Of a stretch of 27,122 nt of DNA, positions 2,205 through 18,604 are shown piece after piece. Source of the DNA: a virus; IMG/VR virus record IMGVR_UViG_3300029858_000001, positions 1 through 27,122 of that record; one strand, 5' to 3'. A program made the position numbers and the translations under genes. The notes beneath the pieces are model-generated. The model was not told where the DNA came from and made no database searches. It worked only from the letters and a program-made list of their open reading frames with translations. Positions within the stretch are counted from its first letter, which is position 1, and the number at the start of each line of letters is the position of its first letter.

Positions 2205-2421
2205 ACTGGTTGAAAAAACTGATTGGAATAAATACCGGAAAAAAGATATTCTTGATTTGGTCAAAGAGCATCCTGAACTTCTGGATATGACACCTGTTCA
2301 GCTTCGTACTAGAGCCAGAGATTTGGATTGGGATGCTGATGGATACATGAATAAAGTTAATAGCCTTGAAAATGAAGCGTCTTTGACCAGAGATTTAATT
2401 GAAATTATGTATGGAGAGTGA
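2179..2421 (+). CDS. hypothetical protein (about 80 aa; the ORF also opens at 2008 but that start overlaps 1956-2204)
   Basis: Internal ATG at 2179 is preceded by GAGGGGATTTTTGAAG. The frame is shared with track ORF 2008-2421. Confidence 0.4.
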   Translation: MMNIAELIKLVEKTDWNKYRKKDILDLVKEHPELLDMTPVQLRTRARDLDWDADGYMNKVNSLENEASLTRDLIEIMYGE

Positions 2422-3233
2422 TAATTATGAATTACCATTCAGATAAATGGGTTATGGATAAAGTAGAAACTCATTTAGAAGCAGCTAATGTTAGAAGCGA
2501 AAATTGGGTTAGTTTAATGGCTTATGGTAGCCAGAATTATGGTCTTGATACTCAATCGTCTGATGTAGATACCCGGCTTATTGTTCTTCCTTCATTTGAA
2601 GATATTGTATTAAATAAGAAGCCGGTATCTTATACCAAGATTCTTCCTAATGATGAACACATTGATTTTAAAGATATTCGTTTGTTCATTGATTGTTTAA
2701 AGAAACAGAATATGGCTTATCTTGAATGTATTTTCACTCCTTATAAAATGGCATCAAGCGAATATTGGAATGAATGGCAGGAGCTGCTCAATGAGCGTGA
2801 AGCTATTGCCCGTTATAATCCTTATAAGGCAGTTAAAACTATGAAGGGTATTGCTATGGAAAAATACCATGCAATGGAACATAGATATCCTATCAAGGTT
2901 CCCCTAATTGATACATATGGTTATGATAGTAAGCAGCTTATGCATTTGTTCCGTATTGAACAGTATCTTGGACGTTATATTGATGGGGTTAAGTATGCTG
3001 ATTGTCTTCCAGCACCAAGGGGTGATTATCTTCTTGCTGTAAAAAATTATCACTATGATCTTGAAGCTGCACGAATTGTAGCTAAAACTGCTATTGACAA
3101 TATTACAAGAGTAGCTGATAATTATTGTGCCAAAACTAAAGATGAAGGTAATAAAGAACTTGAAGATTTTATGAATAATGTCGTTTATAAAATCATGAAG
3201 AAAAGAGTAGTAAAGGAAATGTTAAATGTCTAA
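2418..3233 (+). CDS. Pol-beta superfamily nucleotidyltransferase (MNT-like)
   Basis: Motif GSQNYGLDTQSSDVDTRLIV matches the minimal nucleotidyltransferase signature G-S-x9-13-D-x-D. Confidence 0.6.
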   Translation: MIIMNYHSDKWVMDKVETHLEAANVRSENWVSLMAYGSQNYGLDTQSSDVDTRLIVLPSFEDIVLNKKPVSYTKILPNDEHIDFKDIRLFIDCLKKQNMAYLECIFTPYKMASSEYWNEWQELLNEREAIARYNPYKAVKTMKGIAMEKYHAMEHRYPIKVPLIDTYGYDSKQLMHLFRIEQYLGRYIDGVKYADCLPAPRGDYLLAVKNYHYDLEAARIVAKTAIDNITRVADNYCAKTKDEGNKELEDFMNNVVYKIMKKRVVKEMLNV

Positions 3234-3430: not shown

Positions 3431-4210
3431 ATGTTCAAGGACTATTTGATTAGAGGCGACTGTCATGGTGATTTTACATGGCTTAATGCAAAAATGTTTA
3501 GAATTTTAAATCCAAAAGACTATGCAATCATCATTCTTGGAGATGTTGGTTTTAATACTGGTAGTACATTCCGAGATAATATGAAGAAAGAATACGCAAG
3601 CCAGTTTGGATATTTTATTTATTGTGTGCGGGGCAATCATGAAGTACGTCCTGAGAACATTGAAGGCATGGAGCGTGTTTGGGATAGTAATGTTCAAGCT
3701 AATGTATGGTATGAGCCAGCTTATCCTCTAATTAGATATTTTGATAATTACGGGATTTATTATCTTAAAACTGAAGATAGAGAATATCGTACATTAGTTA
3801 TTGGTGGTGCTTATTCTGTTGATAAATATTATCGTCTTAAAAACAATCTGCTTTGGTGGGAAGATGAACAATTAAGCGATAAAGAAAAGGCTGATGCTGA
3901 AATGCTTATTCGACAAACTAATAAGCATTTTGATCTTGTACTATCACACACATGCCCTTATTCTCTTAGGCCAGTTGATAAATTCCTTTCAGTAGTAGAT
4001 CAATCTACTGTAGATACCTCTATGGAAGAATGGCTTGAAGAAATTAAGAATATGATTACATATGATGTATGGCTTAGTGGTCATTATCATTGCGATAAAT
4101 TTATTAATAAGCATAATATTATCTTTTTTAATTGTATCGACCCTTTGGAAGATATTTTCCTTTGGCATGATAAAATGGATGATACTGTAAATAATATTGA
4201 CCGCTTTTAA
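3431..4210 (+). CDS. calcineurin-like metallophosphoesterase (Ser/Thr phosphatase-like)
   Basis: Motifs GDCHGD, ILGDVGFNTG and VRGNHE match the GDxHG / GDxxDRG / GNHE phosphoesterase signature. The RBS is AGGAGGAACC. Confidence 0.75.
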   Translation: MFKDYLIRGDCHGDFTWLNAKMFRILNPKDYAIIILGDVGFNTGSTFRDNMKKEYASQFGYFIYCVRGNHEVRPENIEGMERVWDSNVQANVWYEPAYPLIRYFDNYGIYYLKTEDREYRTLVIGGAYSVDKYYRLKNNLLWWEDEQLSDKEKADAEMLIRQTNKHFDLVLSHTCPYSLRPVDKFLSVVDQSTVDTSMEEWLEEIKNMITYDVWLSGHYHCDKFINKHNIIFFNCIDPLEDIFLWHDKMDDTVNNIDRF

Positions 4211-12453: not shown

Positions 12454-12602
12454 GCTCTCGTAGCTCAATTGGTCAGAGCCGGCGACTTATCCAAGATTAG
12501 TTTAAATGGTAAAATAGTCTATGCGCAAGAAAGATGTGAGTTCAAGCCTAACATCTTGGGCCAAATCGCCAGATGTGGGTTCAAATCCCGACGGGAGCAC
12601 CA
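12454..12602 (+). tRNA. tRNA (Ile-like, anticodon loop CTTAT|AA, UAU) interrupted by a 73-nt tRNA-like insertion (12491-12563) after anticodon position 36
   Basis: Outer acceptor GCTCTCG / CGGGAGC-A-CCA. D-arm GCTC-AATTGGTCA-GAGC. Anticodon-stem GGCGA / TCGCC is split by the insert. The insert has termini CCAAGAT / ATCTTGG, a T-arm GTGAG-TTCAAGC-CTAAC, and its own G-CCA. Confidence 0.5.
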
Positions 12603-14355: not shown

Positions 14356-14426
14356 TACTTCTTGGTGTAATGGAAGCATGCTGCCTGAAAGAGGCGGAGG
14401 TATTGGTTCAATTCCAATAGAAGGAT
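14356..14426 (+). tRNA. tRNA-like element lacking a canonical anticodon loop (loop TGAAAGA or GAAAG pentaloop)
   Basis: Acceptor TACTTCT / AGAAGGA with one mismatch. T-arm ATTGG-TTCAATT-CCAAT is perfect. Anticodon-stem CTGCC / GGCGG. No CCA. Confidence 0.35.
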
Positions 14427-15011: not shown

Positions 15012-15745
15012 TTAGTAGCATAAGTAATGCAATTTCGAACTGGGTCAAAGAAGGTTAAGAGAATTAATTTAGGAATTAAATAACAGTGAAAGGAGCTGTT
15101 ATTTATGGCTAAAACTAATTCAGAAAATGTATGTAATTTTGTTAGAAATAGAAAAGCTAATTTAATTTCTTTATTTCATAGTAAATGTTGTATTTGTGGT
15201 TTCGATAAATTTCAAGAAGCTTTAGAATTTCATCATATAAATCCTAAAGAAAAAGAAATTTCTCTATCAGCTAATACAATGGTGTCATTAGAACGTCAAA
15301 TCAATGAGGCTAAAAAATGTATTTTAGTTTGTTCTAATTGCCATAAGGGAATACATGCTGGATATTATCAAATTCCTTCTAATTATTAGGATTTATTTGA
15401 TAATGAATAGGCAGAATATTTATTATAGATGAATAAAGAAATTAAAGAAGGTAAAAAACATTATTGCAAACAATGTGGTAAATTATTAAATTCTAATACA
15501 ACTTATTGTTTAGATTGTAGTCATATTATTTAGCGTAAAACAGAAAGACCAGATAGAGAAACTTTAAAGTAGTTAATTCGTAATTAGTCTTTCGTAGCAA
15601 TAGGTAAATAGTATGGAGTAAGTGATAATGCTATTCGCAAATGGTGTGTTTCTATGAATTTACCTACTAAAAAAACAGAAATTAACCTTTATAATGACGT
15701 CTAGTGGGAATAGATATAAGTTCAAATCTTGTTTAAATCACCATA
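15012..15745 (+). mobile_element. intervening sequence (intron-like) inside the tRNA-Gln anticodon loop, carrying a homing endonuclease gene
   Basis: It lies between the exon halves above. It contains ORF 15105-15719. A hairpin AACAG-TGAAAGGAGC-CTGTT presents the SD. Confidence 0.6.
15105..15719 (+). CDS. HNH homing endonuclease (N-terminal HNH: CCICGF...HHINPKE...CSNCH; C-terminal HTH: LIRN(Q)SFVAIGK(Q)YGVSDNAIRKWC) with 7 in-frame TAG sense codons
   Basis: The standard-code ORF is 15105-15389. With TAG read as sense the frame continues to TAA 15717. The frame was verified codon by codon. Confidence 0.7.
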
Positions 15746-15784
15746 AGCAGGGTACCGAGGGTTCAAATCCCTCCACCATCACCA

Positions 15785-16726: not shown

Positions 16727-16801
16727 GGCCCCATCGACAAGTGGTCAAGTCCCAGGGTTTTCATCCCTGTATCGTCGGTTCGAATCCGGCTGGGGTCACC
16801 A
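16727..16801 (+). tRNA. tRNA-Glu (UUC)
   Basis: Acceptor GGCCCCA / TGGGGTC-A-CCA. Anticodon-stem CAGGG / CCCTG. Loop TTTTCAT. T-arm GTCGG-TTCGAAT-CCGGC. Confidence 0.85.
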
Positions 16802-16899
16802 TTAAGTGTGATATATTCCAAACACGTAGGGTGGTAAGCACACGGGTTTTCTAGAAGCCTTCCCTATGAATATGGGAGACTAGCCTAGTGGTTCAGGCA

Positions 16900-17373
16900 G
16901 CGGACTGTTTCTTCTGACTTACAATGTTGTAGAATTATGTTAAATTCAAAACAAATTGGTAATATCACAGAAATGGAATCAATGCTTGCTTTTTTAAAGT
17001 TAGGTTATAATGTTCTTACTCCTTATGGAGATTGTGAGCGTTATGACTTCGTAGCTGATGTGAATGGAAATTTTTATAAAATTCAATGTAAAACTTCTCA
17101 TGCTTTTGGTGAGAATGAAGGTATTGAATTTAGTTGCAGAAGTTCTCATCGAGCCGAAGGAAAATGTATTAACGAACGATATACAGCAGATGATGTAGAT
17201 TTTTTTGCTACAACATTTAATGGGAAATGTTATTTAGTTCCTTTTAATGAATGTGGTGGCAGTAAAAAATTAAGATTTGTTAATCCAAAAAATGGACAAA
17301 TTCAACGAGTATCATTTGCTGAAAATTATGAATTAGAGAAGGTGTTAATGACATTGTAACTGATGTAAGAAGC
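16900..17373 (+). mobile_element. intervening sequence in the tRNA-Asn anticodon loop carrying a PD-(D/E)XK homing endonuclease gene
   Basis: Bounded by the exon halves above. ORF 16937-17359 occupies nearly all of it. Confidence 0.55.
16937..17359 (+). CDS. PD-(D/E)XK homing endonuclease, I-Ssp6803I-like (known from a cyanobacterial tRNA-fMet intron)
   Basis: Motif ERYDFVADVNGNFYKIQCK fits D...(D/E)xK. The size is 140 aa. It lies inside a tRNA anticodon loop. It has no TAG codons. Confidence 0.55.
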   Translation: MLNSKQIGNITEMESMLAFLKLGYNVLTPYGDCERYDFVADVNGNFYKIQCKTSHAFGENEGIEFSCRSSHRAEGKCINERYTADDVDFFATTFNGKCYLVPFNECGGSKKLRFVNPKNGQIQRVSFAENYELEKVLMTL

Positions 17374-17519
17374 AATCCGCCAAGCAAGGTTCAATTCCTT
17401 GGTTTCCCGCCACCGCACTCGCGGAAAACATACAACTCAACTGGTGCATAGAACTGGATGGAGCGTTCTATTAGTCTGATGCCTGCATTAGATTAAGTTT
17501 TATAACCATCATACTTGGG

Positions 17520-17590
17520 GACATAGTTTATGGTAGGAAAACGTTGAATTTAATTCAAAGTCGAGGGTTCGAATCCCACTCCCGCAACCA
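17520..17590 (+). tRNA. tRNA-like 3' element (GAGGG-TTCGAAT-CCCAC ... TCCCGCA-A-CCA) with an unresolved 5' partner. Possibly another split or degenerate tRNA.
   Basis: Canonical T-loop and a CCA end. No complementary acceptor 5' strand was found within 150 nt. Confidence 0.25.
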
Positions 17591-18157: not shown

Positions 18158-18245
18158 GTAGGAGTGCCAGAGTGGTCGATTGGGTTAGTCTCCAAAACTA
18201 ATTGTAGCTACACATCCAGGGTTCGAATCCCTTGCTCCTATGCCA
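18158..18245 (+). tRNA. tRNA with anticodon CCA (Trp-decoding) but a type-II body (3-bp D-stem with 11-nt D-loop, 14-nt variable arm TTGTAGCTACACAT)
   Basis: Acceptor GTAGGAG / CTCCTAT-G-CCA. Anticodon-stem TTAGT / ACTAA is perfect. Loop CTCCAAA. Confidence 0.5.
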
Positions 18246-18515: not shown

Positions 18516-18604
18516 GCGGAATTAACTTGCCCGGCGGTAAGCCTTGTCTTGAAAACAAGTGGTCCTGTGAAAGGGATGGGGATCGACACCTCAGTTCCGC
18601 GCCA
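18516..18604 (+). tRNA. tRNA-Ser (UGA), type II
   Basis: Acceptor GCGGAAT / GTTCCGC-G-CCA. Anticodon-stem CTTGT / ACAAG. Loop CTTGAAA. Long variable arm. T-arm TGGGG-ATCGACA-CCTCA. Confidence 0.75.

Follow-up and report, generated by a model that had tools for sequence, protein, structure and literature searches.

The split tRNA gene and its insert

Here we describe a mobile insert that splits a phage transfer RNA (tRNA) gene in its anticodon loop and that consists almost entirely of a homing endonuclease gene. The stretch of DNA analysed, hereafter the window, comprises 27,122 nucleotides (nt; positions 1 to 27,122 of IMG/VR record IMGVR_UViG_3300029858_000001). It belongs to a phage with a genome of ~187-189 kb from gut metagenomes, and carries a phage tRNA array with at least 10 tRNAs between 12.4 and 18.3 kb. 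In this array, positions 16874-17412 form a tRNA-Asn(GUU) gene that is split between nt 36 and 37 by an insert of 464 nt, a putative intron, at 16910-17373 (the split gene and all its parts described below lie on the plus strand). The 5' exon (nt 1-36, 16874-16909) reads GGGAGAC TA GCCT AGTGGTTC AGGC A GCGGA CTGTT and contains the acceptor strand GGGAGAC, the D arm, the anticodon stem strand GCGGA and the loop bases CTGTT. The 3' exon (nt 37-76, 17374-17412) reads AA TCCGC CAAG CAAGG TTCAATT CCTTG GTTTCCC G CCA, which corresponds to the loop bases AA, the anticodon stem strand TCCGC, the variable loop, the T arm, the acceptor strand GTTTCCC, the discriminator base G and an encoded CCA.

Neither ARAGORN with default settings nor Rfam reported the split tRNA-Asn gene in the window. 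When introns were allowed, ARAGORN found a tRNA at 16874-17412 with an intron of 464 nt, placing the junction one base to the left and calling the gene Asp. This placement, which would make the gene tRNA-Asp(GUC) with its junction at 35/36 and give the insert a terminal G, is ruled out by alleles that lack the insert. The uninterrupted sequence GCAGCGGACTGTTAATCCGCCAAG is present in three viral contigs, L063, L067 and L068, from which exactly the insert is missing (labels of the form L0xx denote the viral loci compared with the window, L001 being Enterococcus phage EFP01). In L063, a close relative of the window phage, the equivalents of 16909 and 17374 adjoin and the flanks are 99% and 93.5% identical, and the uninterrupted gene of L067 is 100% identical to both exons of the window. 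Because the insert-free alleles fix the boundaries to the base, the junction lies at 36/37 and the split gene is tRNA-Asn(GUU), not tRNA-Asp. In-silico splicing yields a product called tRNA-Asn(gtt), 75 nt long, with the anticodon loop CUGUUAA. The original prediction, made from the sequence of the window, was right about the identity of the gene, as the insert-free alleles demonstrate, but its coordinates need correction: the gene starts at 16874 instead of 16864, and the insert measures 464 nt instead of ~475 nt. Its view that the acceptor and T arm are intact across the insert agrees with the sequence, with ARAGORN run with introns allowed and with the predicted fold, and the D arm is intact too; the limits of the 3' exon are supported by the same sources and by the L063 allele.

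Most of the insert is taken up by an open reading frame (ORF) of 140 amino acids (aa), exactly where the prediction had placed it (16937-17359), which leaves 27 + 14 = 41 nt of non-coding sequence on its two sides, within the predicted limit of under 60 nt. That this ORF encodes a PD-(D/E)XK endonuclease resembling I-Ssp6803I had also been proposed, together with a Pfam search as a check. The search matched PF11645 (PDDEXK_5) over residues 3-133 of 140 with E=3e-28 and 99 bits (cut-off 26.1), and phmmer matched the ORF to 2OST (I-Ssp6803I) with E=2.4e-7. An AlphaFold model built on 25 homologues reached a predicted local distance difference test (pLDDT) value of 90.6. Its best PDB match in Foldseek is 2OST, with a template modelling (TM) score of 0.76 and E=2e-10; the top four matches are all 2OST chains (TM 0.65-0.77), followed by Hjc resolvases and EcoRV, and the top 50 matches include no tRNA-splicing endonuclease. 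Residues D37, Q50 and K52 do not vary among the 25 homologues, and 2OST has the same D, Q and K at the aligned positions. Judged by its sequence and modelled fold, the ORF product is a DNA homing endonuclease of the I-Ssp6803I type with intact active-site residues. As a protein, the endonuclease adds a new member to a known family; taken as a whole, the element is widespread and cannot be placed in any known intron class.

It had further been argued that the insert cannot be a conventional group I intron, and several lines of evidence concur. Rfam searches of the window returned tRNA matches only; neither a group I intron nor any other ribozyme was among them. In region 16800-17480, permissive filters and a limit of E<=10 still gave no ribozyme family and no Intron_gpI; the only two matches there are sub-threshold chance matches inside the ORF. 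Likewise, no Intron_gpI match was obtained in EFP01, in 20 viral loci or in four further loci of 15-20 kb, and no group I core was found in ~170 kb of such loci. Across the family the inserts contain 14-54 nt of non-coding sequence, the minimum of 14 nt being found in L023; a conserved group I core (P3-P9) takes up some 200 nt or more of structured RNA outside the coding sequence. Synonymous codon entropy is flat along the ORF (0.33-0.69), and such even variability means that the ORF conceals no conserved RNA core. The last base of the insert is C (17373), not G, and in relatives it can be C, A, U or G, tracking nt 34. The 5' exon ends in U here, the base that pairs with G in P1 of group I introns, but the Arg(ACG), Pro(UGG), Val(UAC) and UUA hosts have G, C or A at this place. 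In addition, the partner of U36 is A(-3), close to the 3' end of the insert, and not an internal guide sequence. The lack of a core, the 14-54 non-coding nt, the lack of a terminal (omega) G and the flat synonymous variation led us to reject a group I intron.

A helix across both junctions

The key feature, which goes beyond the original prediction, is a helix between the anticodon and the 3' end of the insert. We refer to it as helix a, and it is supported by folding, by its register and by covariation. Its 5' strand (16906-16913) consists of U33, the anticodon G34 U35 U36 and insert bases +1 to +4, and encloses the 5' junction 16909/16910. Its 3' strand (17367-17374) consists of insert bases -7 to -1 (AAGAAGC) and A37, such that the last three insert bases, AGC, pair with the anticodon next to the 3' junction 17373/17374. 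Helix a is followed by an internal loop with the strands cUGAC (16914-16918) and CUGAUGU (17360-17366), which could form tandem G.A pairs. In the Asn and Lys classes, UGAC/UGAY is conserved on the first strand and CUGAU(G/U)U is nearly invariant on the second; the motif is missing from the Ile and UUA classes, which keep the helices. Beyond this loop lies helix b, formed by TTACAATG (16919-16926), in the 5' untranslated region (UTR) of the endonuclease gene, and its perfect 8-base-pair (bp) complement CATTGTAA (17352-17359), which contains the last codons and the stop codon. An equivalent of helix b, 6-16 bp long, is present in every family member folded. In the minimum-energy fold of the whole 539-nt precursor (z = -4.6), a cloverleaf, the anticodon stem is greatly lengthened and encloses the ORF, and a helix across the junctions formed in 23/23 mini-constructs of relatives.

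As for the internal loop, we considered reading CUGAUG/UGAC as a hammerhead or a C/D-box K-turn; on inspection, strand order and bulge sizes do not fit, Rfam gave no match, and the absence of the motif from the Ile and UUA classes also counts against it. A likeness to the RNase III site R1.1 of T7 was rejected as well, since the only common feature is a chance UGACC on the other strand.

With the pairing register fixed by the two junctions, we counted pairs over 24 distinct sequences. Pairs 34:-1 (G:C or U:A), 36:-3, +1:-4 and +2:-5 (the latter with five pair types) are formed in all 24, U33:A37 and 35:-2 each in 23, and +3:-6 in 21, and +4:-7 pairs in only 13. In the ungapped alignment A2, 95.8% of cells are paired, versus 66.1% after shuffling and 36-44% when the partners are slid; the covariation score is 0.758 versus 0.160, double changes occur at 11/12 pairs, and none of 500 shuffles attained the observed value for any helix measure, be it pairing or covariation. 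The 3-nt tail of the insert tracks the anticodon of its host tRNA: agc goes with GUU, aaa with UUU, auc with GAU, cgu with ACG, gua with UAC and uaa with UUA. At the same time, the canonical loop features U33, A37 and the C32.A38 mismatch are kept. These data establish the anatomy of the element at the RNA level and show that the junction-spanning helix is under selection. Pairing is tightest at the junctions and becomes looser outward, which points to recognition of the junctions and not to bulk stability.

The two junctions lie on opposite strands of one duplex with 3 bp between them. The 5' exon has a 3' overhang, the symmetry is roughly two-fold, and the distance to the tRNA body is constant. 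Both the folds and the covarying register place the junctions in a continuous helix without 3-nt bulges, and without any bulge at the 5' junction, by which a bulge-helix-bulge intron is ruled out. No splicing endonuclease of the EndA/Sen type was found among the window ORFs scanned, which represent part of the ~187-189 kb genome, and no EndA-type enzyme is known from the bacterial hosts. An intervening sequence removed by RNase III would share the long duplex, but the cuts required here are 3 bp apart and would not leave the 2-nt overhang.

The same geometry raises the possibility that the PD-(D/E)XK enzyme encoded by the insert is itself the splicing nuclease. Its substrate would be an RNA helix that imitates the left half-site and the central anticodon triplet of the DNA target; both strands would be cut with the 3-nt 3' stagger that the enzyme makes in DNA, and the resulting 3'-OH and 5'-P ends would be joined by a ligase of the Rnl type. 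The junctions are indeed 3 bp apart, 3' staggered and flank the anticodon triplet, and on DNA, I-Ssp6803I reportedly leaves 3-nt 3' overhangs flanking the anticodon, a point on which reviews are silent. Such an activity would directly account for the complementarity of tail and anticodon, and would assign the task to the ORF, the sole component that always travels with the element. It would, however, have to be carried out by a protein whose closest structural matches act on DNA (I-Ssp6803I, Hjc resolvases and EcoRV), with no tRNA-splicing endonuclease in the top 50, and no PD-(D/E)XK restriction-type enzyme is generally known to cut double-stranded RNA. Moreover, the right half-site is not mimicked, the insert side being UCUUCUG versus AAUCCGC in the target, and the frameshifted ORFs of L070 and L071, described below, would abolish splicing. 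Cleavage by a homing endonuclease of an RNA mimic of its DNA target is geometrically attractive and chemically unprecedented, and we regard it as very improbable.

Mobility and distribution in phages

Enterococcus phage EFP01 (KY549443) carries a homologous insert of 463 nt, 68% identical in nucleotide sequence to that of the window, at the same tRNA-Asn site; its interrupted tRNA-Asn gene occupies 105242-105777 of the record. In ~29 Schiekviruses related to EFP01 the same tRNA is uninterrupted and annotated as tRNA-Asn, and the flanks are 92-98% identical; the 463 nt lie between CTGTT and AACCAG in EFP01, while insert-free EFGrNG reads CTGTTAACCAG. Since base-exact occupied and empty alleles thus exist in two unrelated phage lineages, the element is mobile. 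At the DNA level, the invasion of a phage tRNA-Asn gene by a homing element exactly between nt 36 and 37 can be regarded as largely demonstrated. The endonuclease presumably attacks phages that infect the same cell and whose tRNA-Asn gene has no insert, cleaving the pseudo-palindromic anticodon arm, for which the predicted target is GCGGACTGTTAATCCGC, and repair after cleavage would copy the insert in.

The same split-tRNA arrangement was found in more than 30 independent loci, a recurrence far beyond chance. A scan of IMG/VR gave 29 loci with family members, all in phage tRNA arrays; a protein database contains 615 clusters of the endonuclease family (E<=1e-5), and the exact protein of the window occurs in 173 blocks of public assemblies. 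The original prediction had named I-Ssp6803I as the only characterised PD-(D/E)XK homing endonuclease, and one that also sits in a tRNA intron; in view of these hundreds of phage relatives, it is no longer alone of its family in residing in a tRNA. Among 185,579 species genomes, searched for chromosomal copies that would prove essentiality, there are only five family loci, all on contigs of metagenome-assembled genomes (MAGs), for which reason we consider the family to be in effect phage-specific. The members examined sit at tRNA position 36/37, except for the damaged L004 and some free-standing copies between tRNAs. tRNA-Asn(GUU) is the commonest host, and the other hosts are Lys(UUU), Ile(GAU), Arg(ACG), Val(UAC), Pro(UGG), a tRNA with a UUA anticodon and a probable Thr. 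Some arrays combine several interrupted tRNAs with free-standing PDDEXK_5 and GIY-YIG genes. In L057 and L059, which are close relatives, further PDDEXK_5 inserts lie at 36/37 of tRNA-Arg(ACG), tRNA-Pro(UGG) and tRNA-Val(UAC) (L057 19094-19549; L059 15443-15925 and 16607-17089), each with a tail complementary to its own anticodon, and L059 contains three or more interrupted tRNAs (Asn, Pro, Val). Free-standing PDDEXK_5 copies are located between tRNAs at L057 10809-11210 and L059 8006-8236, with several GIY-YIG genes nearby. The tRNA arrays of the close relatives of the window phage are homing-endonuclease hot-spots.

Some family members have peculiarities of their own. The most compact one, with its 14 non-coding nt, is located at L023 1486-1921; its host tRNA has a UUA anticodon, like an ochre suppressor, and Gln-like U1:A72 and G73, and the TAA stop codon of the ORF doubles as the 3-nt tail that pairs with the anticodon. 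The endonuclease ORFs at L002 1480-1926 and L004 1501-1923 align over their full length and contain 2-3 in-frame TAG codons, suggesting that these phages probably read TAG as sense. Other ORFs are frameshifted: those at L070 701-1125 and L071 158-582 (115 + 29 aa) are identical in two independent samples, and in a third sample the ORF at L069 403-826 is broken into 47 + 98 aa. In all three loci the tRNA exons and the terminal helices are intact despite the frameshift. Damage to the host tRNA occurs as well. L012 has the change U33C, L017 has a D-arm duplication of ~10 nt that is missing from L016, to which it is otherwise nearly identical, and in L004 the anticodon arm is changed, with a stem mismatch and a GCU anticodon that pairs perfectly with the tail agc.

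These observations bear on the view that the insert is never spliced. An endonuclease cassette would split a dispensable phage tRNA, the tRNA would be lost, and the cassette would persist by homing drive, with the cloverleaf and the closing helices acting as an RNA scaffold. RNase P and 3' processing would release the chimera from a highly transcribed array, and its structured ends would stabilise the endonuclease mRNA, as in engineered tRNA scaffolds. Phage tRNAs are, as a rule, dispensable, and the host tRNAs of L004, L012 and L017 look decayed; the GCU anticodon of L004 is what a drift driven by the helix would give. Elsewhere, by contrast, C32.A38, U33 and the anticodon stay canonical, with no drift towards a better helix, and arrays with three or more interrupted tRNAs, such as that of L059, would be steadily destroyed. 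The free-standing copies of the same family in the same arrays (for example, L057 10809-11210) indicate that the endonuclease gene can live without an intron; the insert has never been seen without its ORF, but the frameshifted ORFs of two samples retain intact ends and exons. Consistent with a scaffold, neither a ribozyme nor splicing enzymes were found, and helix b overlaps the end of the ORF and the 5' UTR, an arrangement that suits expression control. Yet pairing is strictest at both junctions and has re-evolved for each anticodon, which bulk stability would not require. A cassette that is simply not spliced predicts no selection on RNA structure at the junctions, and the helix was found to covary strongly and to track the anticodon. 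This makes an unspliced cassette less likely without disposing of it, because a scaffold function could also select for the helix, and we consider this explanation possible, though doubtful.

The arrays contain a second kind of split tRNA. In the window, the gene at 12454-12602, which is of a different class, is interrupted by an ORF-less insert of 73 nt (~12491-12563). This insert starts with a 7-bp acceptor-like stem (CCAAGAT/ATCTTGG), contains D-arm-like and T-arm-like hairpins (the latter with a TTCAAGC loop) and ends with G-CCA directly before exon base A37, so that it is a tRNA-like minihelix nested in the anticodon loop. Relatives of this insert are present in L063-L065 and at L062 13565-13702, L060 11223-11366 and L057 19669-19814; they include the compensatory change CCAAAAT/ATTTTGG, and the short insert of L062 follows the same design (CGTAGAT...ATTTACG A CCA and then the exon). 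The design suggests excision by RNase P and a nuclease that forms CCA ends, followed by ligation. No insert-free allele was found for this junction; if it lies at 36/37, the host would have a UAU (Ile) anticodon.

Other RNA genes accompany the arrays: ROOL RNA in EFP01 (L001 3968-4554, 265 bits) and at L028 3114-3420, transfer-messenger RNA (tmRNA) genes at L004 3034-3370 and L024 1006-1428, and a RAGATH-33 RNA at L059 13386-13498. Four tRNA calls in the window are odd: a Phe with an AAA anticodon (14356-14426), a 95-nt Leu(CAA) reported by ARAGORN only (15690-15784), a weak call of 32.6 bits just downstream of the split Asn gene (17517-17584), and an 88-nt 'Trp(CCA)' abutting a tRNA-Ser (18158-18245). 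Finally, nine Prevotella Lak megaphage genomes and one uncultured phage of 635 kb match a stretch of 50 nt at 18543-18593 with 90% identity.

Some of these neighbours are relevant to whether the insert could be removed by RNA catalysis, either by a new minimal self-splicing or self-cleaving motif or by an RNA enzyme acting in trans, such as RNase P or a large phage RNA like ROOL. The element has spread over phages of very different hosts with nothing but its own ORF, which favours autonomy or a universal factor, but no ribozyme family was matched even at E<=10, and the terminal G that group I chemistry needs is lacking. In favour of a new motif, the internal loop UGAC / CUGAUGU hardly varies within the Asn/Lys class; against it, this loop is missing in the Ile and UUA classes, and L023 has only 14 non-coding nt. 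As to enzymes acting in trans, ROOL RNA lies 0.5-1.1 kb downstream in EFP01 and L028, but Rfam found no ROOL or GOLLD match in the window. Likewise, the short ORF-less inserts of the same arrays resemble RNase P substrates, but both junctions of the ORF-containing inserts lie inside a continuous duplex and not at the boundary of single strand and helix that RNase P prefers. Taken together, we judge RNA-catalysed removal to be quite improbable.

Possible removal of the insert and comparison with known systems

As regards the chemistry, we favour the alternative raised in the original prediction, namely another route of processing that may depend on proteins: the insert may be a tRNA intron of a new type, which would be cut and ligated by proteins. 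In the precursor, the ends of the insert and the anticodon loop make one continuous helix that lengthens the anticodon stem, followed by the internal loop and by the second helix, which closes off the ORF. A protein endonuclease would take the junction duplex as its substrate and cut it on both strands, and the anticodon loop would then be resealed by an RNA ligase, from phage or host, of the kind that repairs tRNAs, in a process akin to archaeal bulge-helix-bulge splicing but relying on another RNA signal. Counted in favour of splicing are the pairing that has re-evolved after each change of host tRNA and is strictest at the junctions, the canonical U33, A37 and C32.A38, and the intact helix and exons that accompany a frameshifted ORF in two samples. 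The same phage also possesses what is likely a set of RNA end-healing genes, located 13-15 kb upstream of the split tRNA-Asn: a predicted RlaP-like Pol-beta nucleotidyltransferase (2418-3233; Pfam E=7.6e-7, phrog_388 E=2.5e-21), a calcineurin-like phosphoesterase, or metallophosphoesterase (3431-4210; E=1.6e-12), and an AAA_33 P-loop kinase, just upstream beyond the window in a near-identical contig (L072 1670-2206; E=5.9e-12). RlaP tracks RNA ligases in jumbo phages (PMC7824862). The ORF-less tRNA inserts of the same phage, moreover, make sense only if breaks in the anticodon loop are resealed.

Several points weigh against a protein-dependent intron. Searches against Pfam, PHROGs, NCBIfam and PDB sequences gave no candidate for a splicing endonuclease or ligase among the neighbouring ORFs, and the 10 kb upstream of the repair-like genes contained no recognisable RNA ligase. 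We know of no tRNA-splicing endonuclease in bacteria, nor, to our knowledge, are RtcB/Rnl ligases universal. RNase III leaves a stagger of 2 nt, at odds with the 3 nt of the junctions. True introns usually leave ORF-less derivatives. No such derivatives were found here: every insert that a rule-based scan recovered from the retrieved loci was 430-485 nt long, viral contigs contained no ORF-less extra copy of the 3' element, and metagenome contigs contained no mini-version with a gap of 8-38 nt. Some host tRNAs are damaged (L012 with U33C, L017 with the D-arm duplication and L004 with its anticodon arm), and frequent homing into fresh targets could alone explain why exons look intact. It should be noted that the junction of a circularised insert, GATGTAAGAAGC joined to TCTTCTGACTT, had no match in metagenome contigs, which is uninformative given that these data are mostly DNA.

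On balance, it appears somewhat probable from the comparative sequence data that the insert is spliced by some route, and for a protein-dependent cut-and-ligate intron of a new type the arguments on both sides are about evenly matched. The fuller proposal, that these elements constitute a new intron class, namely the first protein-dependent tRNA introns of bacterial viruses, characterised by a helix without bulges in which the last three intron bases pair with the anticodon and both splice sites come to lie 3 bp apart in one duplex, mobilised by an endonuclease of the I-Ssp6803I type and resealed by a repair ligase, is plausible, with the doubts slightly outweighing the support. We are dealing either with a new kind of tRNA intron in bacterial viruses or with a new way for a selfish gene to inhabit a tRNA.

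Introns of bacteria and phages are thought to be self-splicing (group I or II), and protein-spliced tRNA introns are deemed archaeal or eukaryotic. If the insert is spliced, it represents a new intron type and reveals a new RNA processing pathway in bacteria or phages, in which the RNA ligase and repair genes of phages would have a housekeeping role and a routine substrate; it would also mean that a homing endonuclease can survive after losing its ribozyme, or without ever having had one. If it is not spliced, it would be a natural 'tRNA scaffold' for the expression of a selfish gene. In practice, phage tRNA repertoires, and the inferences on codon usage drawn from them, are under-counted because standard tRNA finders miss such genes. 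The question of splicing is directly testable, since the isolated and culturable phage EFP01 carries the element and its close relatives lack it.

A search of the full-text literature gave no description of this architecture. A review of 2014 noted that, although phages have many tRNA genes, every phage intron known at the time was located in a protein gene (PMC3984707), the Jug-phage paper counted 80 stand-alone PDDEXK_5 genes and drew no link to tRNAs (PMC12880540), and the introns within tRNA-Asn and within tRNA-Asp of patescibacteria are ordinary group I introns at 35/36 (PMC13011429). The closest precedent in phages is formed by the 'enigmatic' short tRNA introns of Lak megaphages, of which the authors knew no earlier report (Devoto et al., preprint 10.1101/356790). 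Those are likewise non-group-I inserts in phage tRNA anticodon loops, from gut phages with large tRNA arrays, but they are short and ORF-less, and some are tRNA-like, whereas the element at 16910-17373 carries a homing endonuclease and follows another structural rule. One such short insert is present in the window itself (12491-12563). The short ORF-less inserts examined here end in N-CCA beside a 7-bp acceptor-like stem and form no pairs with the anticodon.

The intervening sequences of bacterial 23S rRNA, which are excised by RNase III without religation, share with our element a long imperfect duplex, sometimes an ORF, and the lack of a ribozyme. However, rRNA works when fragmented, and a tRNA cut in its anticodon loop needs religation in order to decode; furthermore, the stagger in the window is 3 nt and not 2, and the insert is a homing element with base-exact presence and absence. 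Free-standing homing endonuclease genes of phages, known from genes in pieces, are likewise ribozyme-less, reside in their own target, home, and have paralogues nearby. In contrast to that situation, it is a structural RNA that is split here, inside a functional loop, and the ends of the insert co-evolve with the anticodon.

The archaeal bulge-helix-bulge introns, including rRNA introns with LAGLIDADG genes, resemble the element in more respects: they have no ribozyme, a helix of the intron ends encloses the ORF, the anticodon pairs with the intron, the junctions are approximately two-fold symmetric with an overhang of the 5' exon, and the route of removal, presumed in our case, is cutting and ligation by proteins. 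They differ in that the element of the window has no 3-nt bulges, its junctions being separated by three continuous bp and not by 4 bp between bulges, that it is located at 36/37, that its endonuclease belongs to another family, and that its hosts are phages of Firmicutes and gut bacteria.

With respect to the endonuclease, the counterpart is the group I intron in tRNA-fMet of Synechocystis PCC 6803, which encodes I-Ssp6803I, of the same family and fold, and which is also mobile, resides in a tRNA anticodon loop and targets the anticodon arm. We take its insertion site to be after nt 36 as well. That intron is 655 nt long and contains an ORF of 150 aa and a self-splicing group I core of ~200 nt (PMC1995217). 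The element of the window, in contrast, measures 464 nt, of which 41 nt are non-coding, and has neither a core nor a terminal G; members of its family also follow G36, C36 and A36, which are disfavoured by group I chemistry; and what it has instead is a terminal helix between the anticodon and the insert's 3' end.

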